Source: Candidatus Woesearchaeota archaeon (GTDB taxonomy: Archaea > Nanobdellota > Nanobdellia > Pacearchaeales > GW2011-AR1). Taken from it: a stretch of DNA of 64,000 nt. Shown here piece by piece: positions 14,436-36,380 of this stretch (positions are counted from its first letter, which is position 1; every line of letters begins with the position of its first letter). Position numbers and translations under genes: made by a program. The stretch is from contig CAYHCG010000001.1 of NCBI GenBank assembly GCA_964355135.1, forward strand, positions 146,138 through 210,137, written 5' to 3'. Below the pieces are notes generated by a model. That model ran no database searches. It was not told the DNA's origin and saw nothing but the letters and a program-made list of their open reading frames with translations.

Positions 14436-14510
14436 TAAAAATCAATAAGATTTTACTTTATATACATACTTATAGAAAAATTACCTTGTTGCAGGCAGGG
14501 AATAAAGAAA

Positions 14511-15445: not shown

Positions 15446-15556
15446 ATATTACTTTAATGTAATATGTATTTAAATGTTTTGCATTTTGTAAGCAAAAGTC
15501 TTTTTCGGATTGAGTCTAGCGATTATTCCTTTAGGTGCCTTGCAACTTTTGATTAA

Positions 15557-16000
15557 TTACGTTTTTGCAGGTAGAGATTGAGGGACATTTCTAGAGTAGA
15601 TAGTATCTATTACGGATTGGTCAACTTCTGCACCCATAATTTCAAGCATGCTTCTTAGTCTATCTTCTTTGGGGATCAATATTCCGTGTGCGTAATCATT
15701 CACAGTTTGTTTTGGAATGCCGGACTTTTTCGAAAAAGAGTGCTGATTAAACCCGGAGGTTCTCAGAGAATCATTAAACAATGCCGTAAAGGCAAGAGTT
15801 CTAGGCTCGGTTGCTCTTTTTTCACGCAGATGTTTCTGATAAGCAGTTGAACTAGAGAATCCTTTTTCTCTTACTATTGTCATTTGGTAAGCGGAAGCAT
15901 AGCTGATTTCCAATTTTTTTGCAATAGGGTTTACTCTTTCTCCCTCTTGGTACATTATCCATGCTTGTTCTCTCATCTCTTGAGATATTTTTCTTACCAT
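15557..16000 (-). CDS. dual-HTH DNA-binding protein (paralog of 20636-21103)
   Basis: An N-terminal HTH (REQAWIMYQEGERVNPIAKKLEISYASAY) is followed by an XRE-like HTH (FSKKSGIPKQTVNDYAHG). Confidence 0.7.
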   Translation of the reverse strand: MVRKISQEMREQAWIMYQEGERVNPIAKKLEISYASAYQMTIVREKGFSSSTAYQKHLREKRATEPRTLAFTALFNDSLRTSGFNQHSFSKKSGIPKQTVNDYAHGILIPKEDRLRSMLEIMGAEVDQSVIDTIYSRNVPQSLPAKT

Positions 16001-16110
16001 ATAATTATGGTAAAACTATCTTATTTAAATATTTTGGAAAATCTGGTTTAGTTTTAACTTTAAAGTTACTACATTACTAACATTTATAAACGATCCTCGT
16101 AGCTAATTTT

Positions 16111-16524
16111 ATGGCAAAAGTATTAGTTATGCAAGAACCTAAGTACGGAAGAACGTACGACAAGGCAGTAGAAGAAGTATGCGGACCGCATAGCAGAATC
16201 ATGTATGTGAGAAGTCTCTCTGCCTGTGCAAGGCAAATTCATGAAGGAGAGGTAGATGCGGTCATCATACCTGATGGGCAGGGAAGTGATAAAACTGTTT
16301 TTGATTTAGGCACACACTTGCGCAAATTACAGGGAACTAACTCTCCTCAACCAAGAATTTATGGATCAAGTGTAGGCATTTCAATTTATAGGGAATTTGC
16401 ATTAACTCCCGGAAGAGGATATAATCCTCATTATGCGAATGAGATGAAGGAAAGATACGGGCAAAAACCTGAAGACCTATTAAGGGGATGGCTCGCAGAC
16501 AGAGTTAAGAAAGAAACTACATAA
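16111..16524 (+). CDS. hypothetical protein (weak receiver/flavodoxin-like pattern)
   Basis: KVLVMQE...DAVIIPDG. A TATA-like TTTATAAA lies about 24 nt upstream. Confidence 0.45.
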   Translation: MAKVLVMQEPKYGRTYDKAVEEVCGPHSRIMYVRSLSACARQIHEGEVDAVIIPDGQGSDKTVFDLGTHLRKLQGTNSPQPRIYGSSVGISIYREFALTPGRGYNPHYANEMKERYGQKPEDLLRGWLADRVKKETT

Positions 16525-16526
16525 AA

Positions 16527-16844
16527 TTATTCTTTAGGTGCTTTCCCAAATGATCGTAAATTAACTTTCTTTGCAGTTTGCTTAAAGAAAATAGTGCTCA
16601 AATTATAACAAGGCATCGTATATACGCCATTATCAGCCTCATTTCTTGTAGGGTCTGCGCCATTTGTAGGCGGGCGCATAGAATATTGTACACATAGCGC
16701 ACCATCTTTTGTTATTATATCAATATAATATCCTTGTCGTTTACATCCGGAGTTACGAAAAACTAGCTCAATAGGGCTTGATTGTTGCCTATATTGGATT
16801 AATTCTCTTGTAGCTCGCTCTTTTCTACCTAGTGAACCTGTCAT
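16527..16844 (-). CDS. hypothetical protein
   Basis: 105-aa ORF. No motif recognised. Confidence 0.4.
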   Translation of the reverse strand: MTGSLGRKERATRELIQYRQQSSPIELVFRNSGCKRQGYYIDIITKDGALCVQYSMRPPTNGADPTRNEADNGVYTMPCYNLSTIFFKQTAKKVNLRSFGKAPKE

Positions 16845-16934
16845 AAAAAATACAAAAAGAGCGAGTTCTTAAGGATTTATGTCAAGAACACTTCGAGAAT
16901 AAATTTTTAAATACTTAATATACTTCTAATTAAC

Positions 16935-17888
16935 ATGGGATGGTTTGATACTCCAGAAGAACAAAACAGAAAAGATAATGAAAATTATGCGCGAGGAGTA
17001 GAAGATGGACAGAACGAAAGTTTTTTGGGAAGCATATTTCATGACATAGGTCAGACGATTGGAGACATTATACCTGTTCCTGAATGTGAAGAATCTGCAA
17101 GAAGTAGGGAGAATTACGAATCTGGCCGTGCATATGGAAGGGAAAACCCTGCCAGCAGTTCATCAGACGATGACAATGATTCAAGTGATGATTCAAGTAG
17201 CGATTCGTCAAGTTATGATTATAGTTCTTCGGATTCGGATGATGAAGAATATTACCCTACGCCAACTGCTCCTGCCCGTTATGTTGCTCCTGCACCAAAA
17301 GTCATCAGTCCAGAAGAACTAGCAAGAAGAGAAAGAAAAAACATTGCAGATAAAGTTGCAGGCATGACTTCAAAGGAAAGAGATGAAGCGCTGAAAAGGG
17401 AATACGAAGATGGAAAGGCAATATACAATGAACCAGATGAGAGAGTGCGCATGCAGATTATAAATTATCAAGTTATGGAAAAGTCTAATGATATATATGG
17501 AGTTATTATAATGAGCAGACAAGAAGATGAAACGTGGAGAGAGGCCGCTCAAGATAGGTTAGAAGTTCTTCTAAGGAAACATCCAGAAGTAAAGCACTTA
17601 GTAGATATGAACCCAAATATGCTTCTTGCATATGGCAGGAATCCAGATACCCAAGGAATAGAGGCACTTACCCAAGCAAGAGGTATTGAAACTGAGAAGA
17701 GTGAGGAGAAAAGAATAATGGCTCAGATAGACGCGATGACCAGAGATGAAGTATACACCTATTATGAAAATGCTCAGAAGGGTTCTATGCGCATTTATGC
17801 GCTAACAAGATACCATAAGATGCCAGATAAAAACGCAACTTTCTTAGGATTTTTAGGCAATGTTGCTAAAGCTATCTTTGGGAAATAA
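16935..17888 (+). CDS. head-domain family protein A (type-1 head, soluble tail with a C-terminal amphipathic segment)
   Basis: MGWFDTPEEQNRKDNENYARGVEDGQN head, then a Ser/Asp-rich linker, then a tail homologous to 18589-19323 (SNDIYGVIIMSR...RLEVLLRKHPEVKHLV). It ends FLGFLGNVAKAIFGK. Confidence 0.75.
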   Translation: MGWFDTPEEQNRKDNENYARGVEDGQNESFLGSIFHDIGQTIGDIIPVPECEESARSRENYESGRAYGRENPASSSSDDDNDSSDDSSSDSSSYDYSSSDSDDEEYYPTPTAPARYVAPAPKVISPEELARRERKNIADKVAGMTSKERDEALKREYEDGKAIYNEPDERVRMQIINYQVMEKSNDIYGVIIMSRQEDETWREAAQDRLEVLLRKHPEVKHLVDMNPNMLLAYGRNPDTQGIEALTQARGIETEKSEEKRIMAQIDAMTRDEVYTYYENAQKGSMRIYALTRYHKMPDKNATFLGFLGNVAKAIFGK

Positions 17889-17986
17889 AAATCTTTAAAC
17901 AAGCTTAAAGCACGCGGTTTTCTGCCTAAGTAATCTTGACATAAAAAAGAATAAATTTTTAAATAGTTTAAATTCTTATAATAAAC

Positions 17987-18586
17987 ATGACACAAGAAGA
18001 AGATAATGCTCTATACGAACTTGGAAGAAGGGATGGAGAGAACTCTACGTTTATGGATGGACTTGCCGGGATAGCAGGAAGCTTAATTCCCAATACTGCA
18101 GAAGGATTAAGGGAAAAAAAAATTTATGAGGCCGGATATAAATATAGCCTGGAACATAGGCATGATGGTGACCTTGCTTTCTGGGAACTTCCTAAAAACT
18201 CCTCTAGCCCCGATACATCATCATATGATGAGGAAGTGGAGACTGTAGAAGAAAGTTCAACAGAATACTCAAGCTCATCAGATGAAGAATCATGGTCTTC
18301 TCGCGCAAAGTCCGGACTTGGTTTATTAGTTTCCTTTGGTGTTATTAGTCTTTTGTCATTAGGCGGATTGGTATTAACCGGAATAATAATTACTAAAAAT
18401 AAAACCTCTGCGACTCCTTCGCAAGGGTATTTTATTTTAAATGATACTCCCAAGGAATCTAAACCCTATTTCATTTTAAATGATAAACCTCCATTGCCAA
18501 AACATTATAATGGATCGCCAAAATATCCCAAAGGCAACTATAATGGTCCAGATGATTTTGGCGGAGCAGCCCCTAGTCGGAGATAA
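17987..18586 (+). CDS. head-domain family protein B (type-2 head, single TM)
   Basis: MTQEEDNALYELGRRDGEN head, an acidic Ser-rich linker, and the TM segment GLGLLVSFGVISLLSLGGLVLTGIII. Confidence 0.7.
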   Translation: MTQEEDNALYELGRRDGENSTFMDGLAGIAGSLIPNTAEGLREKKIYEAGYKYSLEHRHDGDLAFWELPKNSSSPDTSSYDEEVETVEESSTEYSSSSDEESWSSRAKSGLGLLVSFGVISLLSLGGLVLTGIIITKNKTSATPSQGYFILNDTPKESKPYFILNDKPPLPKHYNGSPKYPKGNYNGPDDFGGAAPSRR

Positions 18587-18588
18587 AA

Positions 18589-19323
18589 ATGACACAAGAA
18601 GAAGATAATGCGATTTATGCTGAAGCAGTAAGAGATGGGCAGAAAGCCGGCTTTATTGGGAGTGTTGCCCATGACTGGGCCAGGATGCTAAATGATCTTC
18701 TTCCATGCGATGCAGAAGTAAGAAGAAAAGAAGAAATAAGAGATTCAGGATTTAAATATGGTCTAGATAATCCTGCAAGTTCAACTTATGAAGAAGAAAC
18801 TAGGGAAGAAGAGAGCTCGACTGATTACGGAGAATATGAACCTTATACTGCTCCCGTACAACAAGCACCCCCCATAGTTGCACCAAAAGAAAAGAAACAA
18901 AATACTCCTAAACTTAATAATTACACTAGAAACGCAGTTTTGTATAGTAATGATATATACTCCACTATTATTTTTAGCAGAAGCAGTGATGAAGCATGGA
19001 GGGAAGCGGGAAGCGCAAGACTTGAAGTACTTTTGAAAAGACATCCTGAAATAAGACATTTAGTAAAAAAAGATTGGACTGAAATCTATAACCTGTCAGA
19101 GAATGACAAAGAAGGCAAGGGCGCGCTTGGACTAGCAAAAGAACTTGATAATAAAGAAAAAGAAGAAAACCGGATGAAGTCAGAAATAGATAAAATGAGC
19201 AGAGAAGAAGTTAGAGATATTGCACATACAAGAGGACATCCCATGGAATTATATGCCTGGGAAAGATATGGTAAAATGCCCCAATTTACCGGAATTCTTG
19301 GACGGCTTTTTGGGAGGAATTAA
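18589..19323 (+). CDS. head-domain family protein C (type-2 head, soluble tail with a C-terminal amphipathic segment)
   Basis: MTQEEDNAIYAEAVRDGQK head. The tail is homologous to protein A and ends FTGILGRLFGRN. Confidence 0.75.
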   Translation: MTQEEDNAIYAEAVRDGQKAGFIGSVAHDWARMLNDLLPCDAEVRRKEEIRDSGFKYGLDNPASSTYEEETREEESSTDYGEYEPYTAPVQQAPPIVAPKEKKQNTPKLNNYTRNAVLYSNDIYSTIIFSRSSDEAWREAGSARLEVLLKRHPEIRHLVKKDWTEIYNLSENDKEGKGALGLAKELDNKEKEENRMKSEIDKMSREEVRDIAHTRGHPMELYAWERYGKMPQFTGILGRLFGRN

Positions 19324-19324
19324 T

Positions 19325-20059
19325 ATGGGATGGTTTGATACTCCAGAAGAACAAAATAGGAAAGATAATGAAAATTATGCGGAAGGAGTAAAAGAAGGCC
19401 AAAATGCTGGATGGTTTGCGGGATTAGGCAGAGAAATAGGAGAGATCGTTACTATCGGTGTTCCTAAATCAGCAGAATATGAAAGAAAACAAGGGATACG
19501 TGATGCGGGAATTAAATATGGGATGGATCACCCTGCGAGGAGTTCTGATGATGACGATGAGGAAGATAATTCCAGTTACTCCGGAGAATCAAGTTATGAT
19601 TCAGATTATTCTTCAAGTTCATCTTACGATTCAACTCCTACTAAAAGAGAGACCCCTAAGTCAGAAGGATCTCCTCTAGGAGCTTTAGTGGCTGGAGTAT
19701 TATTAACTGTCGGACTTATAGGTGCTGCTTATAGTGTAAGGCCTGAACAAAACGTAAAAGACTCTTCCAGCTCGGCTCTGGAGCAGAGTGTTGAACCTCA
19801 ATCGCATGTAGTTGCTCCAATATACCGCGCACCTGCAAGAGCGCCAACACCACCAGTTGCCTGGGATAAAATAACAATATATGAATATTCAGATGGCACA
19901 GTCATGCAAGTTCGTGAAAATTCAACGGGAATTTATATGACGAGTAGAACAAATAATCCGGCTAAATTAGCAAATGAACTGAGATCACTTGAAGAAGATG
20001 CAGCCGCCCGTGAACAGACCATAAATGCTCAAAGGCAGATTAATAGAAAATCTCCTTAG
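19325..20059 (+). CDS. head-domain family protein D (type-1 head, single TM)
   Basis: The internal ATG at 19325 (codon 36 of track ORF 19220-20059) restores MGWFDTPEEQNRKDNENYAEGV. It lies 1 nt after the upstream stop. The TM segment is LGALVAGVLLTVGLIGAAYSV. Confidence 0.7.
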   Translation: MGWFDTPEEQNRKDNENYAEGVKEGQNAGWFAGLGREIGEIVTIGVPKSAEYERKQGIRDAGIKYGMDHPARSSDDDDEEDNSSYSGESSYDSDYSSSSSYDSTPTKRETPKSEGSPLGALVAGVLLTVGLIGAAYSVRPEQNVKDSSSSALEQSVEPQSHVVAPIYRAPARAPTPPVAWDKITIYEYSDGTVMQVRENSTGIYMTSRTNNPAKLANELRSLEEDAAAREQTINAQRQINRKSP

Positions 20060-20100
20060 ACAAGATAAATGTTTAAGTATCTTAAAAGATTAATACTCTA

Positions 20101-20304
20101 ATGGAATACAAAGAAATCGAGCGAGCAAGGAAATACCTGAGCGGACTTGGACTGCGGGCCGTTTATGTTCCAAGGCAGGATGGCTGGAGAGAGCATTTTG
20201 CCCTTCTAGATGATGAAGATTTTCCTGTTTATGCAGTTAATTCTGCTCTTCATTTAGTTAAAGAAATAAAAGATCGCAGGGATAAGGTTAGAGCGTTAAC
20301 CTAA
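20101..20304 (+). CDS. hypothetical small protein
   Basis: 67-aa ORF, convergent with 20301-20561 and overlapping it by 4 nt. Confidence 0.4.
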   Translation: MEYKEIERARKYLSGLGLRAVYVPRQDGWREHFALLDDEDFPVYAVNSALHLVKEIKDRRDKVRALT

Positions 20305-20561
20305 ATAACATCATAAATTCTATTTCCAGAATCAAATTTGTACTCTGTGGCTAAAACTTCCATAAGTTGGTAATGTTTATTTATTTGACCCTGCTTAAGC
20401 GAATCTGTTTCAGAACTTAAAAGTACATCTAATTGAGCTATCTCAAGAAGAACTGCCCTTTCATCTCCTTTATTTCTCATTAGTCTAACAAGGCCCTCGG
20501 TTTTCCAGGCCATGTCTACTACCTGTTCCCTAGTAACTTGAGATTTTATTACATTCGTCAT
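20301..20561 (-). CDS. hypothetical small protein
   Basis: 86-aa ORF. No motif recognised. Confidence 0.4.
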   Translation of the reverse strand: MTNVIKSQVTREQVVDMAWKTEGLVRLMRNKGDERAVLLEIAQLDVLLSSETDSLKQGQINKHYQLMEVLATEYKFDSGNRIYDVI

Positions 20562-20635
20562 ATATTTCTCACAAATTTGCCCTATAAAAATATTTCCATG
20601 GCGTTTTTTTAGCTGTAGAAATCTTTGATATTTTT

Positions 20636-21103
20636 TTATAAATTAAGAGATCTTGGTATTCCTTCTTGCGGAACCTCATTTCTTTGAGGATAAATTATTC
20701 CAAGAGTTTCCTTGTCGGAAGACACGCCCATAATTTCTAGTAATCCCATTAATCTGCTTACCTGAGGTATTGCTCTCCCATGCACATAATCGTGAATAGT
20801 CTGTTTGGCAACACCTGCCAGCTTACCTAAGGAATAGGAATTATAACCTGAGTTTCTCATTGAATCGTTAAATAAAGTTCTTAATGCGGCATGTCTTGGG
20901 TCTTGGGCCCTTCTTGATGCACGTTCCTTTTGGTAAGCAGTAGTGCTATGAAATCCTCTCTCCCTTAAATTTGTTAAGTTATACACAGAACTATGGCTAA
21001 TCCCTAACGTATCTGCAATTTCTCTAGTTTTTTTTCCTTCAGTATGCATAATCCAGGCTTGTTCTCTCATCTCTGGAGTTATAGGTGTAGATCTTTTAGC
21101 CAT
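20636..21103 (-). CDS. dual-HTH DNA-binding protein (paralog of 15557-16000)
   Basis: Colinear with 15557-16000 (PEMREQAWIMHTEGKKTREIADTLGISHSSVY ... LGKLAGVAKQTIHDYVHG). A similar TATTTAAAT promoter lies upstream of both. Confidence 0.7.
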   Translation of the reverse strand: MAKRSTPITPEMREQAWIMHTEGKKTREIADTLGISHSSVYNLTNLRERGFHSTTAYQKERASRRAQDPRHAALRTLFNDSMRNSGYNSYSLGKLAGVAKQTIHDYVHGRAIPQVSRLMGLLEIMGVSSDKETLGIIYPQRNEVPQEGIPRSLNL

Positions 21104-22641: not shown

Positions 22642-22776
22642 TTATTCCTTCTTCTCTTTCCGCCAGATTAAATACTAACTAAATATTGGTCCCAGAATAA
22701 ACAAGACAACTAGACTTACTGCTCTCCCTAACAATGCCGCTGAAAGCGACTGGGTAGGGGCCATTATTAATGTCAT
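22642..22776 (-). pseudogene. decayed duplicate of the 3' end of the flippase-like gene 23888-24808
   Basis: The minus-strand reading gives ...QSLSAALLGRAVSLVVLFILGPIFS*YLIWRKEKKE*. The intact C-terminus reads VSLSATLLNRVVSLVVLFILGPIFSYYLIWRKKE*. A Tyr codon has been replaced by TAG. Confidence 0.65.
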
Positions 22777-22824
22777 GAATAGGAATATTTATATATAGTA
22801 AATATACTATAGTATTATAGTAAA

Positions 22825-23430
22825 ATGCATATAAAGAAAATTAATATTGTAGTAATGAATGCTTTTAGAAGCAATATTTTTCTTAGTAAGACAATTAGAG
22901 AAATTTCTTCAATAGTTGATAAAGATTATCCAAATGTGTTTGATGCTATGAGAGAACTTGCGGATAAAGAGATAATTAAAATTAAAAAAGTCGGAAAAGC
23001 AAATCTATGTGAATTGTTTTTAAATAAAGAATCTATTTCTCTGTTGTCATATCTTGACGAACAAGAGGCGTTCTTAAGAAAAATACCCAATTTGGACAAA
23101 ATATTAGAATACAAAGAGTTTTTAGATGATATAATTTTAGTAACAGGAAGTTATGCAAAAAAAAGAGAGAATTCTAAGTCAGATATAGATTTAGTTTTAA
23201 TCACTAGGGGTAAAGCTTTAAATAAACTAAAACTTCTAGAGAATTTAACTTCTCTATTTTACCCAAAATATCATATTATTGTTATTACCTACAAAGATTT
23301 TATAGATATGCTATTAGATAAAAAACCGACTTTTGGAAAAGAAATATTTAATAACAGGCTACTATTTAGGGGTGCAGAAAGGTATTATGAGTTAATAAAG
23401 GAAGCAATTGAAAATGGATTCAGAGGTTAG
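22825..23430 (+). CDS. wHTH-fused minimal nucleotidyltransferase
   Basis: ILVTGSYAKKRENSKSDIDLVLI (G-S...D-x-D), with an N-terminal wHTH-like region. Confidence 0.8.
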   Translation: MHIKKINIVVMNAFRSNIFLSKTIREISSIVDKDYPNVFDAMRELADKEIIKIKKVGKANLCELFLNKESISLLSYLDEQEAFLRKIPNLDKILEYKEFLDDIILVTGSYAKKRENSKSDIDLVLITRGKALNKLKLLENLTSLFYPKYHIIVITYKDFIDMLLDKKPTFGKEIFNNRLLFRGAERYYELIKEAIENGFRG

Positions 23431-23887
23431 TCTGCTTTTGGCAAGAGCGGAAGATGAATTTCTTCTGGCAAAGAAAGATATGCAAATTTCTACAGACAAG
23501 AGAATAAAAGAAATTTTGGGAATTCTGCAAGATAAGACTTTTTTCTATTCAGTAATTGCCCACTCATACTACTCTATCTTTCATACTGCTAAAGCATACT
23601 TATTAAGCAAAAATATTAAGACAGTTCCTCCAGAAGAACATAAAAAAACATACAATTTATTCTCAAAATTTGTTCATAATGGTGAACTTGATAAAGAATT
23701 ACTAATAATTTACGAAAGCGAGATAATGAAGGCAGATTCGTTGCTTGCAATATTTAAAGATGAAAAAAAGAAGAGGGGAATGTTTACCTACAATGTTAAA
23801 TCAGAGGCGAACAGACCCTATGCGCAAGAATCGGTTAATAATGCAGAAAAATTCGTTTCTACAATGAAGAATATCCTAAAAGAATAG
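23408..23887 (+). CDS. HEPN domain protein
   Basis: AHSYYSIFHTAKAYLLSKNI is a typical HEPN N-terminal helix pattern. The gene overlaps the NTase gene, and its stop abuts the stop of 23888-24808. Confidence 0.7.
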   Translation: MKMDSEVSLLLARAEDEFLLAKKDMQISTDKRIKEILGILQDKTFFYSVIAHSYYSIFHTAKAYLLSKNIKTVPPEEHKKTYNLFSKFVHNGELDKELLIIYESEIMKADSLLAIFKDEKKKRGMFTYNVKSEANRPYAQESVNNAEKFVSTMKNILKE

Positions 23888-24808
23888 TTATTCCTTCTTT
23901 CTCCAAATCAAATAGTAGCTAAATATCGGGCCTAGAATGAATAAGACTACTAATGACACTACTCTATTAAGTAGAGTTGCAGACAAACTTACTGCAGGAT
24001 TTATATCAATTAAAAGCGCGGAAAATACTGCTAAAGCTTCTGAAACTCCAAGATTAGAAGGCGTAATAGATATTATTAATCCAAGAGTAGAAATCGAGGT
24101 TAAGAATAAACCTTCTATAAAACTAATTTGGGCACCCATAGCCCCATAAGAAAGCATTGTTGCAATCGTCCCAATAATGATCTGTGATATGAATAAAACA
24201 GATATGTAAGAAACGGTTCTTTTGTTTTTGCGTATATTATTCCAACCTTCTAAGGTTTCTCTAACCTTATCTAAAAAGTAACTATCTCTTTTTTGAAGTG
24301 ATGGTGAAAATAATATCACAAAAAAAGAGCAAACAAAGGCCCCAATGAATATTATAAATAAGGTCCAGCTAAATATACCATAGTAATAATATAAACCTGC
24401 GAGGCTTATTAATCCCATTATGCTAGCAGCCATAAAGTTTATTATATAAATTCCCGAGACTGTTGAAACAAACTTGGAATATTCAAAATCATGTTTTTTC
24501 TTAAGATATATTGCCCTGCTAAATATTCCTCCTCCAAATGGGGCGATTAGATTATAAAAGGTAGTTATGATAGACAGGCCATACCATTCTTTTGTTTTCA
24601 GATTTATGTTAAAAGGTATTAAGACAAATTTAGTTATAAGCCCCCCGCAGCCTGCAAATATTATGGCTATAATGCCCAGAGAAATAAGATAACCTGGGCG
24701 TACAATGGACAAATTATTAAAATCTTCTTTATTATTATGTATATAAAAGATAAATAAGAACAGCACTATAATTAGAATAGCATAAGAAAAAATCTTTTTA
24801 CCTTTCAT
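23888..24808 (-). CDS. flippase-like polytopic membrane protein (UPF0104 / LPG-synthase TM-region-like, tentative)
   Basis: 306 aa with about 8 hydrophobic segments. It is the last gene of the GT operon. Confidence 0.5.
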   Translation of the reverse strand: MKGKKIFSYAILIIVLFLFIFYIHNNKEDFNNLSIVRPGYLISLGIIAIIFAGCGGLITKFVLIPFNINLKTKEWYGLSIITTFYNLIAPFGGGIFSRAIYLKKKHDFEYSKFVSTVSGIYIINFMAASIMGLISLAGLYYYYGIFSWTLFIIFIGAFVCSFFVILFSPSLQKRDSYFLDKVRETLEGWNNIRKNKRTVSYISVLFISQIIIGTIATMLSYGAMGAQISFIEGLFLTSISTLGLIISITPSNLGVSEALAVFSALLIDINPAVSLSATLLNRVVSLVVLFILGPIFSYYLIWRKKE

Positions 24809-30742: not shown

Positions 30743-30958
30743 CTAATCCCCCTGAGCATCAAACTCTTCTTTCTTTAAGCCGTCAAGAACTTTGTAAATG
30801 GGTTGTAGTTCTTGAGCACAACAAAGATGAGATCTTTGTGCCGTCAAAACTTTAGTTTTGAGGTGATCAAGATTCGCAAATCTTGACAGGTAGAGGATTT
30901 CTTCTTGGGTGCGGCTGAGACGCTTACTGTTACTTAATTCCATATTGTGTTTAATCAT
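30743..30958 (-). CDS. small protein whose N-terminus resembles the GT2 C-terminal tail
   Basis: ATG at 30958 with a GGAGG 7 nt upstream. KRLSRTQEEILY compares with KRISRTQEEVLY at the end of 33293-34270. Confidence 0.4.
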   Translation of the reverse strand: MIKHNMELSNSKRLSRTQEEILYLSRFANLDHLKTKVLTAQRSHLCCAQELQPIYKVLDGLKKEEFDAQGD

Positions 30959-31119
30959 TTTTTCCTCCAAAAATCGGTAAGACCGATAAATATATATAGT
31001 TTGTTTCTTTCGTTTTCCTAGTAGACGCAAGAGCTCTGACGAATCCCGTGCCTCCCTCGAGGAGATAGGAGAAATCCGAAGATGATGCGGTTAGTAGGAT
31101 TGATGAGCTCCCAAATCTA

Positions 31120-31584
31120 TTAATCATTTATGCTTCTCCTTACCAAATTTAATTGTGTATCAATTATTAAGCTTAGTTTGTATTCAGGCGAGCCTTTTTT
31201 TAATTGGCTCTCTTTAACTATTGCAACTTTATTTTGATCTACCAAACTAATTATTTTTCTAAATGTTTTATACTGAAAATTATCTACACAAATAAAGATT
31301 ATGCAATTTTCGTATTTCTTAATAAATTCAGACACTTCAATAAATATATCCAGATTGTTTCTTATACCTTTTATCTTAAGTTTCTTAAGGTAAGAGTCGA
31401 TTTTATCTCTTTCAAATAGTTTCTTCATGGAATTAAGATACTCTCTTTTATGTCTTAACTCTTTATAATGAGCGAGTTTTGTTATTTTCGGCAGCAAATC
31501 TTTAATTTGATTTTGTTCAATTATACAATATCCAATTAAATTCTCTGAATAGTCTATGAAGATGTAATAGTCAAATTCTTTCAT
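31120..31584 (-). CDS. hypothetical protein
   Basis: 154-aa ORF whose start codon lies inside the 84-bp repeat. The weak PIN/NYN-like pattern (YYIFIDYSEN...FICVDNF) is not diagnostic. Confidence 0.5.
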   Translation of the reverse strand: MKEFDYYIFIDYSENLIGYCIIEQNQIKDLLPKITKLAHYKELRHKREYLNSMKKLFERDKIDSYLKKLKIKGIRNNLDIFIEVSEFIKKYENCIIFICVDNFQYKTFRKIISLVDQNKVAIVKESQLKKGSPEYKLSLIIDTQLNLVRRSIND

Positions 31585-31661
31585 CTTTTGTCTAACTCCT
31601 GTTTTTTCAGATGGTAAAGAACTTCTTCCTGGGTTCTGCTGATACGCTTAAGCATATCGGC
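31578..31661. repeat. 84-bp perfect direct repeat, copy 1 (orphan fragment of the GT2 3' end)
   Basis: Identical base for base to 33290-33373. On the minus strand it encodes the last 26 codons plus the stop of the GT2 gene, without the rest of the gene. Confidence 0.9.
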
Positions 31662-31880
31662 TGACGAATCGATATAGAATGATTTTACTCCCGACATTTT
31701 ACACAAAAACCTCTGTTTTTACCATAAATATGCCTAGTTAATGCCAATATAAATATTATTGTGAAAGGGAAGGCACTTTTCTCACCTTGAGAGGATTATA
31801 GATAAGCGAAGGGTTTTGATGTGACGAAAAGTTTATATACTATAGGTGTATGGTTATACAATAAAGATATATGGTGTAAA

Positions 31881-32459
31881 ATGCTGACTGTGAATGAGAA
31901 AAAGGTATTGAAAGTGTTGATTTTTTCATTTGGGGAAGATTACTCTATCAATGAGATTTCAAGAAAATGCAGTATTGCGCCCAATGGAGCTTTAAAAATT
32001 CTCAGAAAGCTTGAAAAAGAAGGGATTTTAACACAAAAAAAAATAGCAAATATAAATTCTTACAAGATAAATTTTGATAATATAAAGACTAAAAATATTA
32101 TTGAACTATCATTGATTCAGGATTTAAGTGGCAAAATAAAAAATAGATACCTTGATTTAGAACAACTAAAAGAAATTACCCAGAGCTGTATCCTTTTTGG
32201 GTCTTATGTGTATAAAGATAGTCCGAACGATTTAGACTTAATTTTTATCATTGAGAAGAAAAAATTAGATAAGTATAGAGAACTGTCCAGAAAATTATAT
32301 GTCTCGATGCCGATTAAAGTTCATGATATTATTCAAACAAAAGAAGATTTTATTAATAACATTAAGATAAAAGACCCCGTTATTATCAAGTCTTTAAGAG
32401 AAGGTATAATATTATGGGGACACAGTATAATTATTGAGGCGGTTGAAAATGCAAGATAA
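31881..32459 (+). CDS. wHTH-fused minimal nucleotidyltransferase
   Basis: CILFGSYVYKDSPNDLDLIFI. ATG at 31881 is preferred over the GTG at 31821. The N-terminal wHTH-like region is INEISRKCSIAPNGALKILRKLEKEGIL. Confidence 0.8.
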   Translation: MLTVNEKKVLKVLIFSFGEDYSINEISRKCSIAPNGALKILRKLEKEGILTQKKIANINSYKINFDNIKTKNIIELSLIQDLSGKIKNRYLDLEQLKEITQSCILFGSYVYKDSPNDLDLIFIIEKKKLDKYRELSRKLYVSMPIKVHDIIQTKEDFINNIKIKDPVIIKSLREGIILWGHSIIIEAVENAR

Positions 32460-32946
32460 AATTAAATCCTGCTTAAAGGAAGGGGAACAAGGAGAAAGAC
32501 ATAAAGGGCTAAGAAAGACAATCCCTGATGATAAAATAACTAGGGGACATGTGAATAAAGCGATACACAATTTTAATGCTATTGAGACATTTAATAGAGA
32601 GGGCTACTCAGATTGGAGCGCTTCCGCAGCATTTTACTGCCTGTACCATGCCCTGCTTGCCTTGATAGCCAAGAAAGGTTACGAATCAAGAAATCAGACT
32701 TGTACATTTGCTTTAGTTGAAGATATGATAAGCAACAAAGAAATATCATTAACTCTGGAAGAGCTAAAAGAAATATATGATAAAGATGTTACAGAAAAAC
32801 TTGAACAAAGCATAAAAATATTAGATATGAGAGAAACTATGCAATATTCTATAAGAACTTCCTTAAAAGACGCAGAGTTTAAAATTCTAAAAGACAGAAC
32901 TAAATTCTTACTGGATAAAATCAGAAATGATATAGAGAAGATTTAG
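32434..32946 (+). CDS. HEPN domain protein
   Basis: SASAAFYCLYHALLALIAKKGYESRNQT is a HEPN helix pattern. The gene overlaps the NTase gene. Confidence 0.7.
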   Translation: MRRLKMQDKIKSCLKEGEQGERHKGLRKTIPDDKITRGHVNKAIHNFNAIETFNREGYSDWSASAAFYCLYHALLALIAKKGYESRNQTCTFALVEDMISNKEISLTLEELKEIYDKDVTEKLEQSIKILDMRETMQYSIRTSLKDAEFKILKDRTKFLLDKIRNDIEKI

Positions 32947-32952
32947 AAGTTT

Positions 32953-33114
32953 TTAAGCAGTATAAATAAAGACATGTCCTAAATTTAGATTTTCTTTTCT
33001 GCAGATATTTCTAAATGTTTGTAAGTATTGCAGATTCTCTTTGGTTTTATTTTGAAAATGCTTTTTTACTAATCCAAAAAAACCGTCATCAACAAAAACA
33101 ATAGTCTCTTCCAT
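32953..33114 (-). CDS. possible short ORF or gene fragment (53 aa; not in track)
   Basis: My own translation gives MEETIVFVDDGFFGLVKKHF.... Its ATG overlaps the stop of 33114-33296 (TAATG). It may be a remnant. Confidence 0.25.
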   Translation of the reverse strand: MEETIVFVDDGFFGLVKKHFQNKTKENLQYLQTFRNICRKENLNLGHVFIYTA

Positions 33115-33296
33115 TAGAATATTCCCCCAAACACATCAAGAAGATTAAAGCATCCGGCAACCTTGCGATCACCGGGGATCATACTCACAATCATAAGATT
33201 GCTAAAAGTAAGACTATCTTCAAGTTTATAAATTTTATGTTTCCCCCAAATACTCTTATCTTTCCCCTCCACTTTAAATTCTTCTTTAACTTTCAT
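33114..33296 (-). CDS. possible short ORF (60 aa)
   Basis: Its start codon lies in the 84-bp repeat and overlaps the GT2 stop (ATGA). No motif recognised. Confidence 0.3.
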   Translation of the reverse strand: MKVKEEFKVEGKDKSIWGKHKIYKLEDSLTFSNLMIVSMIPGDRKVAGCFNLLDVFGGIF

Positions 33297-33373
33297 CTTT
33301 TGTCTAACTCCTGTTTTTTCAGATGGTAAAGAACTTCTTCCTGGGTTCTGCTGATACGCTTAAGCATATCGGC
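33290..33373. repeat. 84-bp perfect direct repeat, copy 2 (3' end of the intact GT2 gene)
   Basis: Identical to 31578-31661. Confidence 0.9.
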
Positions 33374-34270
33374 CAGGAGGCCTAGGATGGCGAGGGAGAT
33401 GCCGAAGATGACTAGGAAGACTGAGACGTTGAACAACATGCGAACTGGTGTGGTGACGTGGTTGATGAGCCAGAAGTAGAGAGTGTATAGGCCGCCTATG
33501 ACTCCGAGAATGAAGGAAATGAATCCGGGAAGGCCGAAAAATGTTAGGGGTTGTGTGTCACGAGTTGTTCTGGCTATAATTCCTAGGCTTTTGAAACCGT
33601 ATCTGCTTAAATTTCCAGTTAATTTTGATTTCCTATCTTTGTGATAGACTACAGTGAGAGGAACTTCCTTAACTGTGATTCCTTTTCCTACTAAATCTAT
33701 GAAAGCTTCCTGAGTGTAAGTAAAATTACCGAATAAGTTTAGCTTTAGTGCTGCTTCACGGCTGTACGCGCGAAAACCGCATTGGGTATCTGTAAAATGC
33801 TGTCCAGTTACTCTGCTTATCAGATTTGTGAATCTTCTATTGCCCCATTTTTTTATGTAAGGCATATTCTGGGGTTTTTGGGTGGAAAATCTTGTGGCAG
33901 TTACCATGCCTGCTTCCCCATTTAGAATGGGGCGGATTAGTGCTTCAATGTCTTTAGGGTTAAATTGGCCGTCACCATCAATGTTCACTATGATGTCTGC
34001 ATCAAGAGACAAGGCGTGTTCTATTCCTTTACGGAATGCCACGCCAAGACCTTTATTTGTAATGTTAGAGATTATGTGATCTGCTCCTGCTTTGCGTGCT
34101 ACTTGAATAGTATTGTCGGTACTGCCATCATCAATAACTAAGACTTCCACAAGGTGATTGTTAACTCTTCTAGGGATATTAGAGATTACTTTGGAGATAG
34201 TTGCACTTTCATTATATGCTGGAATTTGCACAATTATCTTTTTTAATGGTTTTTTTCCTCTTTTTTCCAT
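33293..34270 (-). CDS. glycosyltransferase family 2 (dolichyl-phosphate sugar synthase-like) with C-terminal TM segments
   Basis: IPAYNES...VIDDGSTDNT...NIDGDGQ...TDTQCGFRAY, followed by two C-terminal hydrophobic segments. Confidence 0.9.
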   Translation of the reverse strand: MEKRGKKPLKKIIVQIPAYNESATISKVISNIPRRVNNHLVEVLVIDDGSTDNTIQVARKAGADHIISNITNKGLGVAFRKGIEHALSLDADIIVNIDGDGQFNPKDIEALIRPILNGEAGMVTATRFSTQKPQNMPYIKKWGNRRFTNLISRVTGQHFTDTQCGFRAYSREAALKLNLFGNFTYTQEAFIDLVGKGITVKEVPLTVVYHKDRKSKLTGNLSRYGFKSLGIIARTTRDTQPLTFFGLPGFISFILGVIGGLYTLYFWLINHVTTPVRMLFNVSVFLVIFGISLAILGLLADMLKRISRTQEEVLYHLKKQELDKR

Positions 34271-34545
34271 GGAGGTTTAGTAAGGAAGTCAATTATAAAT
34301 ATTGTTGCATGCTATTATATGATTTGGGAGAGATAATTGAGAAAGAGGGGAGTTTTGGAAAGGCTTAAATAGATTAAATACTCTTATTTATTAATAACTT
34401 CCCCGGTATGGTCCTTAGGGGCAATGCCGGGCAGATATTTAATTTTATTTATGATGTTGTTGATACATATTGATGAATTTGCGACTTTTTTCAAAGCTGA
34501 AGAGGAACTTGAGATAAAAAGGGACTCTGGAAGCTAATTAGAAAG

Positions 34546-34881
34546 CTATACTAGAGAGATTTTCTTCATACCTTCCTTTATTAAAGGAATTTCTTTTTTT
34601 AAAGTGTCCCAGATTCGATTAAGACTTATTTCATAATAGGAGTGGGCAATCAAATCTCTGAATTGTGATAAGTTAAACCAGTTAACATGTTTGTTTTTCT
34701 CCTTTAAAGATCTAGGAATATTTCTACTGGCTTCCCCGATTATCTCCAGTCTCCTCACGACAGCATCTTGTAATTTCCTGTCTTTTTTGAAATCTTCTTC
34801 CGAGATATCCATTACATACTCTTCTATATATTTTACACTATCTCTTATATCCTGCAGATATAATTTATAGTCTCTCTTCAT
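34546..34881 (-). CDS. hepT: HepT (DUF86) HEPN toxin, copy 1
   Basis: RDLIAHSYYEISLNRIW matches the R-x4-H-x-Y motif. There is a 4-nt overlap with mntA. Confidence 0.9.
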   Translation of the reverse strand: MKRDYKLYLQDIRDSVKYIEEYVMDISEEDFKKDRKLQDAVVRRLEIIGEASRNIPRSLKEKNKHVNWFNLSQFRDLIAHSYYEISLNRIWDTLKKEIPLIKEGMKKISLV

Positions 34882-35171
34882 ATAATTCTAATTTCCTCTT
34901 TGAGAATTCTATTCTTCAGTTCTTTTCTGATTGCTTCATACTCCACCAAATCGACTTTTTTACCTAAAATTGATTCTAATTCATTTTTTATTTGTATAAA
35001 GCCCATTAAACCAAAATCTCTATTTTTTATTTCTACCAAGATATCTACATCACTATTCTTCTTCTGCTCTCCCCTGACATAACTTCCAAATATGCCTGCC
35101 CTAGTGGCGTTATGTTTGATAAGTACTTTTTTTACCTTTTGCTTTATTTCTGGGAGTTCCTTATTCATCAT
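34878..35171 (-). CDS. mntA: MntA minimal nucleotidyltransferase antitoxin, copy 1
   Basis: GIFGSYVRGEQKKNSDVDILVE. Confidence 0.9.
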   Translation of the reverse strand: MMNKELPEIKQKVKKVLIKHNATRAGIFGSYVRGEQKKNSDVDILVEIKNRDFGLMGFIQIKNELESILGKKVDLVEYEAIRKELKNRILKEEIRII

Positions 35172-35293: not shown

Positions 35294-35524
35294 TTATTGG
35301 GTTTCTGTGGCGGGCCTGATTAAAATTGCAACAAAGTCGTCTAAAGGCTGGTCAGATTCGTCATAAGCCTGTGAGCAAACATAGTGTTCTATGTTTTTTG
35401 AGCGATACTCCTCAAGTCTTGGAGGTAGAAGAGAAAGTCTTACATTCGCCTCAAAACGGAAACCTTGACTGAGAGCATCGGCATATGTACTATCTCTTAG
35501 TGAGAGTTTAGGTTTTTCTTCCAT
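35294..35524 (-). CDS. hypothetical small protein
   Basis: 76-aa ORF preceded by a copy of the GT2 upstream segment. Confidence 0.4.
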   Translation of the reverse strand: MEEKPKLSLRDSTYADALSQGFRFEANVRLSLLPPRLEEYRSKNIEHYVCSQAYDESDQPLDDFVAILIRPATETQ

Positions 35525-35654
35525 ATGATATTAAAGGATGAAAGTAATATAAATATTGTTGCATGCTATTATATGATTTAAGAGTGATAATTGAGGATTT
35601 GGGAGTATATTTGGGAATTTTGAGCAAAAAAGGGTTTGAAGGCCATTTAGAGAA

Positions 35655-35990
35655 TTATACTAGGGAAATCTTTTTGAAACCTTCTTTGATTTGGGGAATT
35701 CTTTCCAGTACTGTCCTCCATATTCTATTAAGACTTAATTCAAAGTAGGAATGAGAGATTAAATCCCTGAACTGGGATAAATCGAACCAGGGAACCTGTT
35801 TGTTTTTTTCTTTTAATGATCGCGGTATATTTTTGCTTGCTTCTCCAATTATTTCAAGTCTTCTTACTATAGCATCTTGTAATTTCTTATCTTTTTTAAA
35901 ATCCTCTTCAGAAACATTTTTCATGTATTCTTCAATGTTAGCTATACTGTCTCGGATATCTTGTAAATAGAGTTTGTAGTCTCTTTTCAT
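35655..35990 (-). CDS. hepT: HepT (DUF86) HEPN toxin, copy 2
   Basis: RDLISHSYFELSLNRIW. Colinear with copy 1, with most residues identical. Confidence 0.9.
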   Translation of the reverse strand: MKRDYKLYLQDIRDSIANIEEYMKNVSEEDFKKDKKLQDAIVRRLEIIGEASKNIPRSLKEKNKQVPWFDLSQFRDLISHSYFELSLNRIWRTVLERIPQIKEGFKKISLV

Positions 35991-36274
35991 ATTATTTTGA
36001 CTTCCTCTTTGAGTATATTTTTCCTTAATTCCTTGCGAATTGTATTATACTCTACAAGATCGACTTTTCTGCCTATGCTTCTTTCTAATTCATTTTTTAT
36101 TTGAATAAAGTCTACTAGATCAAGTTTTTCATCTAACTCGACTAAAATATCTACATCACTATTCTTTTTTTGCTCTCCCCTGACATAACTTCCAAATATC
36201 CCTGCTCTAGAGGCATTGTGCTTAAGGAGTACTTTTCTTGCCTTTTTCTTTATTTGGGGAAGTTCTTTATTCAT
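35987..36274 (-). CDS. mntA: MntA minimal nucleotidyltransferase antitoxin, copy 2
   Basis: GIFGSYVRGEQKKNSDVDILVE. Confidence 0.9.
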   Translation of the reverse strand: MNKELPQIKKKARKVLLKHNASRAGIFGSYVRGEQKKNSDVDILVELDEKLDLVDFIQIKNELERSIGRKVDLVEYNTIRKELRKNILKEEVKII

Positions 36275-36310: not shown

Positions 36311-36380
36311 ACAGAGAGATTTACTTAGTAAGGAAGTCAATTATAAATATATGTTTTCTAAATCAGAGGATAATTGAGAG

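Follow-up and report, generated by a model that had tools for sequence, protein, structure and literature searches.

How has the 3' end of an intact glycosyltransferase gene (GT2) come to stand twice in one genome, in two perfect copies with an NTase-HEPN gene pair lying between them? The question arises in a 64,000-nt stretch of DNA (hereafter the window) from a Pacearchaeota (DPANN) archaeon of Hainich groundwater, for which the data are short-read metagenome assemblies. It touches on an old open question, namely how toxin-antitoxin and defence cassettes spread without a visible mobility gene. MNT-HEPN pairs are regarded as mobile cassettes. In the literature on DPANN mobile elements we found no description of how wHTH-NTase/HEPN cassettes move, nor, in that literature together with the literature on integrons, any description of repeat-flanked cassettes of the kind considered here. 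The pattern that we report points to a route of gene insertion which no known enzyme in the region explains.

The sequence-only reading of the window had described an 84-bp perfect direct repeat, the right copy of which holds the last 26 codons and the stop of GT2 together with the start codon of the next ORF; both statements are borne out, and the interpretation built on them is for the most part supported, with the corrections given below. Self-blastn of the full 64-kb window matches 31578-31661 with 33290-33373 at 84/84 positions (E 3.8e-38), the repeat is present in several assemblies, and a repeat search together with self-blastn gives this pair as the single perfect long repeat of such a kind in the window. 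The 84-nt duplication is real. The features at its two edges are as follows.

31120-31584, minus strand: ORF154, a conserved DPANN-specific 154-aa protein with a predicted RNase H-like fold
31578-31661, minus strand: left repeat copy, an orphan GT2 3' fragment joined to the native ORF154 start ATGAAAG
33290-33373, minus strand: right repeat copy, the last 26 GT2 codons and stop, the stop overlapping the next ATG (ATGA), then AAG
33293-34270, minus strand: GT2 glycosyltransferase, intact (Pfam Glycos_transf_2 PF00535, E 2.4e-25), the source of the duplicated 3' end

The left copy reads as an ORF of 38-41 aa whose TGA overlaps the ATG of ORF154; the 84 nt extend 7 nt into ORF154, and directly past them ORF154 continues as AATTTGAC. 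The ATG embedded in this copy had been thought to serve ORF154 as a newly acquired start. This does not hold, because the conserved native start of the ORF154 family is ATGAAAGAATTT, seen as ATGAAAG at the repeat end. Since ATGAAAG is native to ORF154, the repeat is a GT2|ORF154 junction rather than a pure GT2 fragment, and a duplicated gene junction is what would be expected if the target itself had been copied. GT2 orthologues lie upstream of ORF154 in loci L027, L029 and L047 as well.

The block between the copies, ~1.63 kb long, contains, besides ORF60 and a spacer, an NYN gene that is truncated and a wHTH-NTase/HEPN pair in inverted orientation, served by a putative promoter of its own.

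31662-31823, no strand: spacer of ~160 nt from the left repeat copy to the NTase promoter
31824-31841, plus strand: putative BRE/TATA-like NTase promoter, CGAAAAG TTTATATA, read from the sequence by comparison with the left flanks of related loci
31881-32459, plus strand: wHTH-NTase of the second cassette (Pfam HTH_24; NTP_transf_2 just below the cut-off, 20.0 vs 21 bits)
32434-32946, plus strand: HEPN gene of the second cassette (PF05168, E 1.1e-5)
32953-33114, minus strand: ORF53, the N-terminal 53 codons of an NYN-domain gene, cut off beside the HEPN stop
33114-33296, minus strand: ORF60, a small conserved ORF (motif SMIPGD..VAG.F) whose start codon is the ATG within the right repeat copy

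The sequence-only reading had placed a cassette and two short, possibly fragmentary ORFs here. ORF53 is 70% identical to the N-terminus of a 200-aa NYN protein (L061:7710-8312; Pfam NYN); ORF60 is conserved and has counterparts preceding NYN genes in related loci. A candidate structured RNA inside ORF60 (88-96% nucleotide identity in L094 and L045) was rejected on the ground that the protein frame SMIPGD..VAG.F is conserved in L035. The NTase and HEPN genes of the pair are adjacent and overlapping, and encode a Pol-beta-type NTase domain and a HEPN domain; the putative promoter of this NTase has the same consensus as those of the NTase1 family. HEPN scores above the Pfam cut-off in both this pair and the first cassette of the window, NTP_transf_2 in the first alone. 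The spacer has no homologue in any fetched related locus. Owing to its truncated NYN gene, inverted NTase-HEPN pair and spacer, the block is composite and not one clean cassette. In a related lineage (L087) with a 78% identical GT2, a HEPN2-like gene already lies downstream, with another gene between the two; the HEPN adjoining GT2 there has 73% amino-acid identity to that of the second cassette. The NTase-HEPN pair may thus be old at this site, and the part that moved may have been the GT2-end+ORF154 unit rather than the pair.

Further repeats of this type lie elsewhere in the window.

22642-22776, minus strand: diverged orphan 3' end of an LPG_synthase_TM gene, upstream of the first cassette
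22825-23887, plus strand: first wHTH-NTase/HEPN cassette, its HEPN stop abutting the stop of the convergent target gene
23888-24808, minus strand: LPG_synthase_TM gene, intact, the target of the first cassette
30889-30926, minus strand: third, diverged copy of the GT2 3' end (31/38 nt, encoding KRLSRTQEEILY), just after the unit formed by ORF154 and a structured RNA
34277-34341, minus strand: GT2 promoter/5' UTR segment, repeated at 35542-35595 (91%) and 36325-36355 (97%)

A geometry shared with 22642-24019 had been proposed and is confirmed: the orphan LPG_synthase_TM 3' end is ~76% identical to its source over ~135 nt with a 6-nt indel, and aligns to it with a score of 66, where the cross-locus controls reach 38 at most. 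The third GT2-end copy scores 41 against a shuffle maximum of 27 and also exceeds the maximum of the cross-locus control, so that three GT2 3' copies stand in tandem, separated by the block and by ORF154 with its RNA. ORF71 (30743-30958), which overlaps this copy, was considered as an HTH gene and rejected, having no Pfam match and a sole relative (L124) that is not an open frame; it is now read as non-coding sequence containing the decayed GT2 end. Upstream of GT2, the three copies of its promoter segment separate two MNT-HepT pairs. At a third NTase pair (14511-15445), a match of 23 nt has the right geometry but falls short of significance (score 26, shuffle maximum 32), and no flanking match was found for the NTase at 59607-60329.

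A comparative survey of NTase-HEPN flanks, as the sequence-only reading had proposed, covered ~130 related loci with 31 NTase1-HEPN1 cassettes and 69 ORF154+RNA units, together with cross-locus controls, and the flanking repeats proved to be recurrent. Direct repeats derived from the target flank 8-10 of the 31 cassettes, compared with 1% in the controls; most cassettes (~70%) have no detectable repeat. The repeats come from the 3' ends of ArgRS, PolB and LPG synthase and from the region just downstream of SBDS, where in each case the cassette stands alone between two copies of the local target. With GT2 and gyrB included, the repeat differs for each target; as it derives from the local target, the cassette cannot have brought it along. 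The ORF154+RNA units behave likewise, with 16 of 69 (23%) repeat-flanked against 1% in controls, examples of the flanks being a gyrB 3' end (L015) and GT4 5' starts (L029, L061, L047). A common mechanism that targets gene 3' ends had been suggested. The recurrence of target repeats supports its first part, but the restriction to 3' ends fails, since in related loci, and upstream of GT2 in this window, it is the downstream gene whose promoter or 5' start has been duplicated. The apparent preference for gene ends may reflect selection for non-disruptive insertions. As had been claimed, the duplication is longer than classical target-site duplications: a fixed short length (2-15 bp) was not found, the repeat measuring 84 nt in the present case and its counterparts at related loci 28 to ~300 nt. 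Their identities span 100% to ~67%, which looks like a decay series. This amounts to a countable signature, namely target-derived repeats of 28-300 nt at gene ends, carried by a quarter to a third of cassettes, which can be searched for and dated by repeat decay.

The explanation that we prefer, and consider evenly balanced between true and false, is that the 84-nt repeat was copied from the target during DNA insertion at a long-standing cassette hotspot downstream of GT2. We infer an ancestral junction in which the GT2 stop overlapped the ORF154 start (ATGA), and the order of events and the enzymology given below are conditional in the same way; the observations on which they build are the repeat, its support in assemblies, the composition of the block, and the recurrence with its statistics. 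The ~1.63-kb block would then have come to separate two copies of this junction. Because the junction is present twice, the 3' end of GT2 stays intact, and ORF154 retains its upstream frame, ribosome-binding region and coupled start. Two routes may be envisaged. In the first, two nicks ~84 nt apart would be made, the overhangs filled in and the incoming DNA joined between them, giving a long target-site duplication. In the second, homology in GT2 would anchor DNA from a sister haplotype, and an illegitimate join would be made 84 nt upstream of the junction. ORF154 and its RNA could have been placed after GT2 by an earlier event of this type, which left the third, decayed GT2-end copy.

Several observations count against duplication on insertion. 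The block lacks defined ends and holds a truncated gene, and is therefore not a clean element; related cassettes have flanks of unequal length, with 0-96 nt beyond the HEPN stop and 1-371 nt ahead of the NTase ATG; and the cassettes lacking a repeat and the HEPN2-like gene of L087 weigh on the same side. No enzyme can be named, and exact-protein contig look-ups gave no empty-site allele, circular junction or contig running from GT2 directly to ORF154. When the flanks of 16 repeat-flanked units were joined and the fetched loci searched, no true empty site was found among them; all that the search returned were occupied orthologous sites (L140 for L137) and loci with a shuffled order (L105 against L096).

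It is possible, though we lean away from it, that homology alone stacked the cassettes, either by letting a circular cassette enter in a Campbell-type single crossover or through unequal exchange between two hotspot haplotypes. The incoming DNA would come from a relative which had a different cassette at the same hotspot and already carried the GT2 3' end; no new duplication mechanism would be needed, and the repeats would later let cassettes loop out and reintegrate. Perfect identity over 84 nt is enough for homologous recombination. The order GT2, cassettes, ORF154, glycosyltransferase is kept in L027, L029, L047, L061 and L023, arrays occur with 3-5 copies of the same GT4 5' fragment in differing lengths, the block is composite, and L087 shows a sister haplotype with another gene between GT2 and the HEPN2-like gene; all of these favour stacking. 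Homology-facilitated illegitimate recombination is known in naturally transformable bacteria and laboratory constructs. In it and in Campbell-type integration, incoming DNA is held by a single homologous anchor and, as at the locus described here, a segment is left in duplicate, which would explain both hotspots and stacked cassettes, but alone they do not explain first-time insertions at new targets. The ArgRS, PolB, SBDS and LPG-synthase sites would each need a repeat-less insertion followed by transfer, which could have happened but is less economical. We know of no description of homology-facilitated integration as a systematic cassette-array route in DPANN archaea.

Besides insertion with target duplication and stacking by homology, a dedicated mobile system deserves attention owing to the gene beside the left copy. 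The sequence-only reading had seen no recombinase gene. For known families this stands: among 40 window ORFs scanned there is no integrase/transposase, tyrosine/serine recombinase or IS1634-family DDE domain, the precomputed Pfam annotation of the 21-kb locus holds no tyrosine/serine recombinase, and the block has no transposase, encoding only the NTase, HEPN, ORF60 and the NYN fragment. The claim requires a qualification, as an uncharacterised protein with a predicted RNase H fold, ORF154, accompanied by a structured RNA, abuts the left copy.

31008-31130, minus strand: structured RNA (or structured DNA site), present after every ORF154 homologue
30982-30998, plus strand: BRE/TATA-like motif, ~24 nt from the RNA stem edge and pointing into the RNA, a candidate picked out by inspection of the letters

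By sequence, ORF154 is homologous to no family in PDB or Pfam. Its AF2 model (pLDDT 90) matches RNase HII best (E 3e-5, TM ~0.5) and IS621 weakly (E 0.036), and the family, whose members are all <=212 aa, has an invariant D..E..D..E..D pattern and no second catalytic (Tnp/serine) domain. The RNA fold is 84% paired against 37-50% in slid controls, with 14 of 17 pairs changed on both sides (covariation); the RNA model matches with 75.5 bits and has its sole copy in the 64-kb window here. Cues to its strand conflict, with G.U pairs in the outer stem favouring the ORF154 strand and A.C pairs in the apical stem favouring the opposite one, from which the BRE/TATA-like motif also points in. The motif is conserved after the RNA in most loci. 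A known RNA family or tRNA beside ORF154 was ruled out, since Rfam (gathering threshold) and ARAGORN gave no match in the whole window.

Such a system, which we regard as improbable, would move non-autonomous cassettes in trans by means of ORF154 and its RNA, or of another enzyme, and would open gene boundaries by long staggered nicks, in the manner of IS1634/IS1549. In its favour are the position of ORF154 against the left repeat copy, its predicted RNase H/RuvC-like fold with conserved acidic residues, the covarying RNA that always accompanies it, the excess of repeats around its units, and its presence at three recurrent hotspots with variable cargo (gyrB|gyrA, hsdR and GT2). Insertions of IS1634/IS1549 likewise carry long direct repeats of the target with a variable length of 8-514 bp, for which there is no mechanistic model (PMC2266710). 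Those elements differ in having a large DDE transposase and terminal inverted repeats; here neither was found, no pair having arms at 31662 and 33289, and the cassette ends are loosely defined. Against a dedicated system, no ORF154 lies within 6 kb of most repeat-flanked NTase-HEPN loci, and 154 aa is small for a recombinase. The RNA loops (GUCWAUCCUACU and UUCGUCAG) hardly vary between loci whose targets differ, and the RNA contains no guide segments varying with, or complementary to, target or donor; in this respect, and in the lack of a second catalytic domain, ORF154 and its RNA are unlike the IS110 bridge RNA and TnpB/OMEGA systems with their target-varying guides. ORF154+RNA may be no more than one further addiction or defence cassette, and a disrupted operon junction may merely be a safe place for more insertions.

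In its boldest form, to which we give a small chance, the proposal is of an undescribed route of gene movement in Pacearchaeota/Woesearchaeota, by which cassettes would be inserted at gene boundaries with target duplication, so that no gene is broken, the insertion being catalysed in trans by ORF154 and its RNA as a module that seeds the gyrB|gyrA, hsdR and GT2 hotspots. The cassettes under this proposal would be small promoter-plus-gene units (wHTH-NTase/HEPN, NYN and toxin-antitoxin pairs), with tens to hundreds of target bases duplicated. The module is DPANN-specific and marks three recurrent insertion hotspots, the gyrB|gyrA junction included. Should ORF154+RNA take part in insertion, it would represent a minimal recombination system of a new type; should it not, it still represents a conserved pair of RNA and protein, so far unreported, in genome-reduced archaea.

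It is very unlikely that the repeat arose in assembly, by concatenation of two strain haplotypes sharing 84 nt. Short-read metagenome assemblies are open to such errors, the contigs L089 and L090 end exactly at 31661, the repeat edge, and strain variation is present, with 10 mismatches in 11.5 kb between replicates. Contig ends at this point are also as expected for a true repeat. To run through both copies, a contig must include the junction 31661|31662, where the spacer meets the GT2 fragment and which is present in neither simple haplotype. Both copies are in the source contig (ENA ERZ1292616, 228 kb) and in the replicate assembly ERZ1292618 (L002, 99.9% identical); the left junction is additionally in L091 (H52 0.2 um R3) and L092 (H51), making four independent assemblies from two wells, and the right junction is additionally in L086 from well H51, making three. 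Dozens of unrelated assemblies show this geometry as well. Apparent deletions of the RNA and of part of GT2 in L091 and L086 were rejected, being 10-N scaffold gaps. In well H51, where coverage is low, one base separates the right copy from the left, a difference that speaks for a recent event and makes strong homogenisation less likely.

An integron-like platform, or an integrase-type element with an att site overlapping a gene 3' end, is scarcely credible, since the repeat is taken from the coding part of the gene next to it, differs by locus, folds weakly as single-stranded DNA (z -1.5 and -1.7) with unpaired ends and thus without an attC-like hairpin, and has no tyrosine/serine recombinase domain near it in the ORFs tested or the annotated 21-kb locus, even though integrons have been reported in Archaea, Nanoarchaeota among them (PMC9668308), and their arrays resemble this one in having small, often toxin-antitoxin-type cassettes, repeated segments between them, a fixed platform and a promoter-bearing constant module, here ORF154+RNA. 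Integron arrays differ in their IntI, which was not found here, and in having attC hairpins in place of locus-specific fragments of flanking genes. Integrative elements at gene 3' ends (attL/attR) similarly show a direct repeat of the target 3' end and leave the gene intact, but need an integrase and a fixed, element-borne att site; here no integrase was found and the repeat is target-specific.

The cargo itself recalls the MNT-HEPN systems (type VII, MntA/HepT-like) in being an NTase and HEPN pair, and canonical MNT-HepT pairs adjoin GT2. It differs from them in that the NTase, with its N-terminal wHTH domain, and the PF05168-type HEPN match the PADLOC candidate PDC-M05A rather than MntA, the wHTH-NTase of the second cassette with E 1.5e-9.

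Duplications copied from the local target, and variable in length, flank gene cassettes both at unrelated targets and at conserved hotspots. In the window, a repeat search found 31578-31661 and 33290-33373 (copies L and R) identical over 84 nt, as the sequence-only reading had stated; self-blastn of the window gave the pair E 3.8e-38 and no second perfect repeat of that length. The features around the ~1.63 kb block between the copies are as follows.

33293-34270, minus strand: GT2, a family-2 glycosyltransferase gene (Pfam E 2.4e-25)
33290-33373, minus strand: copy R, the final 26 codons and stop of GT2, the stop overlapping the next ATG (ATGA), then 3 nt more
31824-31841: BRE/TATA-like promoter of the block's NTase-HEPN pair, CGAAAAG-TTTATATA
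31578-31661, minus strand: copy L, terminating 7 nt into the 154-aa gene ORF154 (31120-31584)
30982-30998, plus strand: BRE/TATA-like motif read from sequence (ACCGAAAG-TTTATATA type), ~24 nt off the stem of the RNA element after ORF154 and aimed into that element

The window derives from a 228-kb contig from Hainich groundwater (well H52, 0.1-um fraction), and its source is a DPANN archaeon, since homologues of its genes carry Pacearchaeota, Woesearchaeota or Nanoarchaeota annotation. Independent assemblies were used as a stand-in for read mapping. Both copies are also present in the replicate R2 contig (99.9% identity); a well H51 contig spans GT2, copy R, the short ORFs ORF60 and ORF53, and HEPN, while contigs of the H52 0.2 um fraction and of H51 span NTase, spacer, copy L and ORF154. 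Two further assemblies end exactly at the repeat edge 31661. Because independent assemblies contain it, the unusual junction 31661|31662 is real sequence and not one assembler's product. A one-base difference between the copies in H51, at a coverage of just 2-3x, speaks against strong gene conversion and in favour of a recent event.

Read along the minus strand, GT2 with copy R is followed by ORF60, ORF53 and an inverted HEPN and wHTH-NTase pair, then by a ~160-nt unassigned spacer, copy L, ORF154 and a structured RNA, and finally by a decayed GT2-end fragment and GT4 genes. ORF53 comprises the initial 53 codons of an NYN-domain gene and shares 70% identity with the N-terminal part of L061's NYN protein (200 aa; L061 is a related locus); ORF60 is a small conserved ORF that lies upstream of NYN genes in L029, L047 and L061. 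The block NTase matches PADLOC candidate PDC-M05A, and the cargo pairs have the domains that define NTase-HEPN toxin-antitoxin modules. With ORF60, a truncated NYN gene and an inverted pair under its own promoter, the block is thus a composite with a broken gene, rather than the NTase-HEPN cassette with two short, possibly fragmentary ORFs that had been proposed. Nor is the ATG in copy L newly borrowed by ORF154, as had been suggested: the start ATGAAAGAATTT is conserved across the family, so the repeat ends in 7 nt of ORF154 and represents a copied GT2|ORF154 junction.

That ORF154 arose by chance is ruled out by its 267 homologues of ~153 aa. In a set of 1.84 billion proteins, the family amounts to just 106 clusters at 50% identity, with no member above 212 aa, and ORF154 matches nothing in Pfam, PADLOC, NCBIfam or PDB sequences. 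The AlphaFold model (pLDDT 90, 33 homologues as input) finds its matches in RNase H-fold proteins, RNase HII among them (Foldseek E 3e-5, TM ~0.5); D11, E125, E134 and D142 are invariant, and E14 and D101 are kept in at least 90% of sequences. The 154-aa protein is DPANN-specific, and its predicted fold is RNase H-like. Since the ORF154 start codon overlaps an upstream frame's stop (frame of at least 40 codons) in 25 of 53 units, the duplicated fragment before ORF154 would supply transcription and translational coupling.

Directly 3' of the stop, every ORF154 homologue carries an element of 90-120 nt. Across 75 sequences, a 17-pair RNA model places standard pairs in 84% of cells, compared with 37-50% for slid partners; 14 pairs change on both sides, and the covariation was reached in 0 of 500 shuffles. 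Loop sequences in this RNA of ~100 nt are near-invariant (window unit 31008-31584; also L003-L085). In a covariance-model search, the window yielded a single hit, at 31008-31130 on the minus strand (75.5 bits). The pair of ORF154 and RNA falls into no family of Pfam, Rfam, PADLOC or NCBIfam. The BRE/TATA-like motif opposite ORF154 holds the same position in most ORF154 loci and, because it points into the element, the RNA may be transcribed antisense to the ORF154 3' end; the strand signals, G.U against A.C counts, conflict.

A flanking-gene-end fragment on both sides of a selfish cassette is seen at least four times in the window. Just past the RNA, a third GT2-end copy (30889-30926, 38 nt, 82% identical to the GT2 3' end) scores 41, where 500 shuffles reach 27 at most, and tops every cross-locus control. 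Two canonical MNT-HepT pairs upstream of GT2 are set apart by copies of the GT2 promoter/5' UTR segment (34277-34341), which is found again at 35542-35595 (91%) and 36325-36355 (97%). These tandem pairs (34546-35171 and 35655-36274) are ~76% identical, each bounded by such copies. The geometry is shared with 22642-24019, as had been noted, where a diverged LPG-synthase 3'-end copy (22642-22776) lies upstream of the first wHTH-NTase/HEPN pair. A third wHTH-NTase with a 132-aa partner (14511-15445, minus strand) was rejected as a further instance: its 23-nt match (14479-14501 with 15555-15577) has the right geometry and is not statistically significant. This pair adjoins a 512-aa membrane glycosyltransferase.

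Two surveys extended the comparison to related loci. For the first, 75 ORF154 loci were taken from species-representative genomes, and the 250 nt upstream of the ATG were aligned with the 450 nt after the RNA; 16 of 69 ORF154-RNA units exceeded the 99th percentile of cross-locus controls. For the second, 54 metagenome loci with relatives of the first NTase were collected, and in the 31 with enough flank the 500 nt upstream of the NTase were compared with the 500 nt past the HEPN stop. A significant flanking repeat was present in 8-10 of these 31, against 1% in controls, and the repeated sequences were local. Most of the NTase loci lack an ORF154 within 6 kb. The cassette limits in several run from ~10-20 nt upstream of BRE/TATA to 0-26 nt from the HEPN stop, with longer flanks elsewhere.

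Flanking repeats and hotspots in the two surveys
L076, ORF154 locus: 97 nt, 96%
L029, ORF154 locus: 53 nt, 100%
L061, ORF154 locus: 128 nt, 84%
L015, ORF154 locus: last 30 nt of gyrB
L009, ORF154 locus: 84 nt, 94%, two cargo ORFs between copies
L102, NTase locus: last ~30 nt of ArgRS, stop and 14 nt more
L137, NTase locus: final 31 nt of PolB; this site also occupied in L140
L127, NTase locus: region ending at convergent SBDS stop
L099, NTase locus: intergenic, 52/52 match
Hotspot gyrB|gyrA: 4 loci (L006, L013, L015, L024)
Hotspot downstream of hsdR: 9 loci (L003, L009, L021, L025, L032, L041, L046, L049, L056)
Hotspot downstream of GT2 orthologue: 5 loci and the window

ORF154 and its RNA recur in these three contexts, each with variable extra cargo. 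In L047 and L061, a GT4 5' fragment is repeated 4 or 5 times, its copies separated by NTase-HEPN, ORF154-RNA, NYN, DUF3800 and toxin-antitoxin cassettes. The statistics of the two independent surveys support the proposal of the sequence-only reading: a shared mechanism, by insertion or recombination, that duplicates long stretches of the target. Its restriction to 3' ends holds for ArgRS, PolB, gyrB and LPG-synthase and not for the GT4 5' fragments or the GT2 promoter/5' UTR segment. In several genomes, ORF154 and RNA sit between the paired genes gyrB and gyrA or within type I restriction-modification operons, splitting them; the variable genes beside the unit at gyrB|gyrA and hsdR include NTase, OLD-like TOPRIM, AlbA_2, WYL and NYN. 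Some genomes hold 2-3 ORF154-RNA copies, including tandem ones (L018, L023, L029).

At the window locus, the ancestral GT2|ORF154 junction would have been opened, and 1.63 kb would have come to lie between duplicates of the junction's last 84 nt. The moving part would be either the block itself or a unit of GT2 end and ORF154, attached behind a GT2-X-HEPN-NTase haplotype that was already there. One route would be a staggered break spanning ~84 nt, with fill-in of both sides and DNA joined between them, yielding a long target-site duplication; the spread of cassettes to new targets favours it. The other would be homology-anchored illegitimate recombination, or unequal exchange, between two hotspot haplotypes, which is favoured by the composite block, the hotspots and a sister haplotype in L087, whose GT2 (78% identical) has a stop overlapping the ATGAAAG of an unrelated ORF, followed by a convergent HEPN 73% identical to that of the block. 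Both routes may operate, with de novo insertion first and homologous spread and stacking later. Deletion bias in small genomes would trim orphan copies and cassette flanks to functional boundaries, which could explain why junctions often coincide with start or stop codons.

The pattern is most safely classed as a variant of a known process, recombinational insertion that duplicates the target. It is reminiscent of IS1634-type long duplications, of the att-site duplications of integrative elements, of integron arrays, and of Campbell or homology-facilitated integration. As had been noted, no recombinase is seen: a scan of 40 window ORFs gave neither an integrase nor a transposase domain, and the duplications come with no terminal inverted repeats and no attC site. 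A role of ORF154 and its RNA in insertion is a minority possibility; the predicted fold is compatible with RNA-guided recombinases, but the RNA lacks target-dependent segments and the protein a second domain. By their defining tests, the pattern does not qualify as IS1634-type, as an att-site integrative element or as an integron. IS1634 and IS1549 make long target-site duplications by an unknown route (PMC2266710), integrative elements duplicate att sites and integrons form arrays, whereas here the repeats are locus-specific and neither a transposase nor an integrase nor an attC site is seen. We found no account of gene-end duplications flanking cassettes in the literature on DPANN mobile elements and integrons, and target-derived gene-end duplication around cassettes appears undescribed so far.

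Other repeats were observed in the window. A short two-hairpin element at 30809-30872 (TCAAAACTAAAGTTTTGA, ACAAAGATCTCATCTTTGT) is 83% identical to L124:2905-2973, an unrelated metagenome locus, and has a partial inverted copy at 35446-35469. Paralogous HTH genes (15557-16000 and 20636-21103) share a 36-nt repeat and enclose four tandem paralogues, all with acidic serine-rich tracts, two starting with MGWFDTPEEQNRKDNENYA and two with MTQEEDNA; 15557-21103 may represent either a gene family in expansion or an element that has integrated. Repeats of ~120 nt (84-97% identical; 51882-52004, 53978-54104 and 54221-54350), common to large, probably surface-protein genes, have the look of domain repeats and not of cassette flanks. 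A NifU-like gene on a contig of a related Pacearchaeota (L003/L004/L005:2323-4101; precomputed Pfam) contains an intein with a LAGLIDADG domain.
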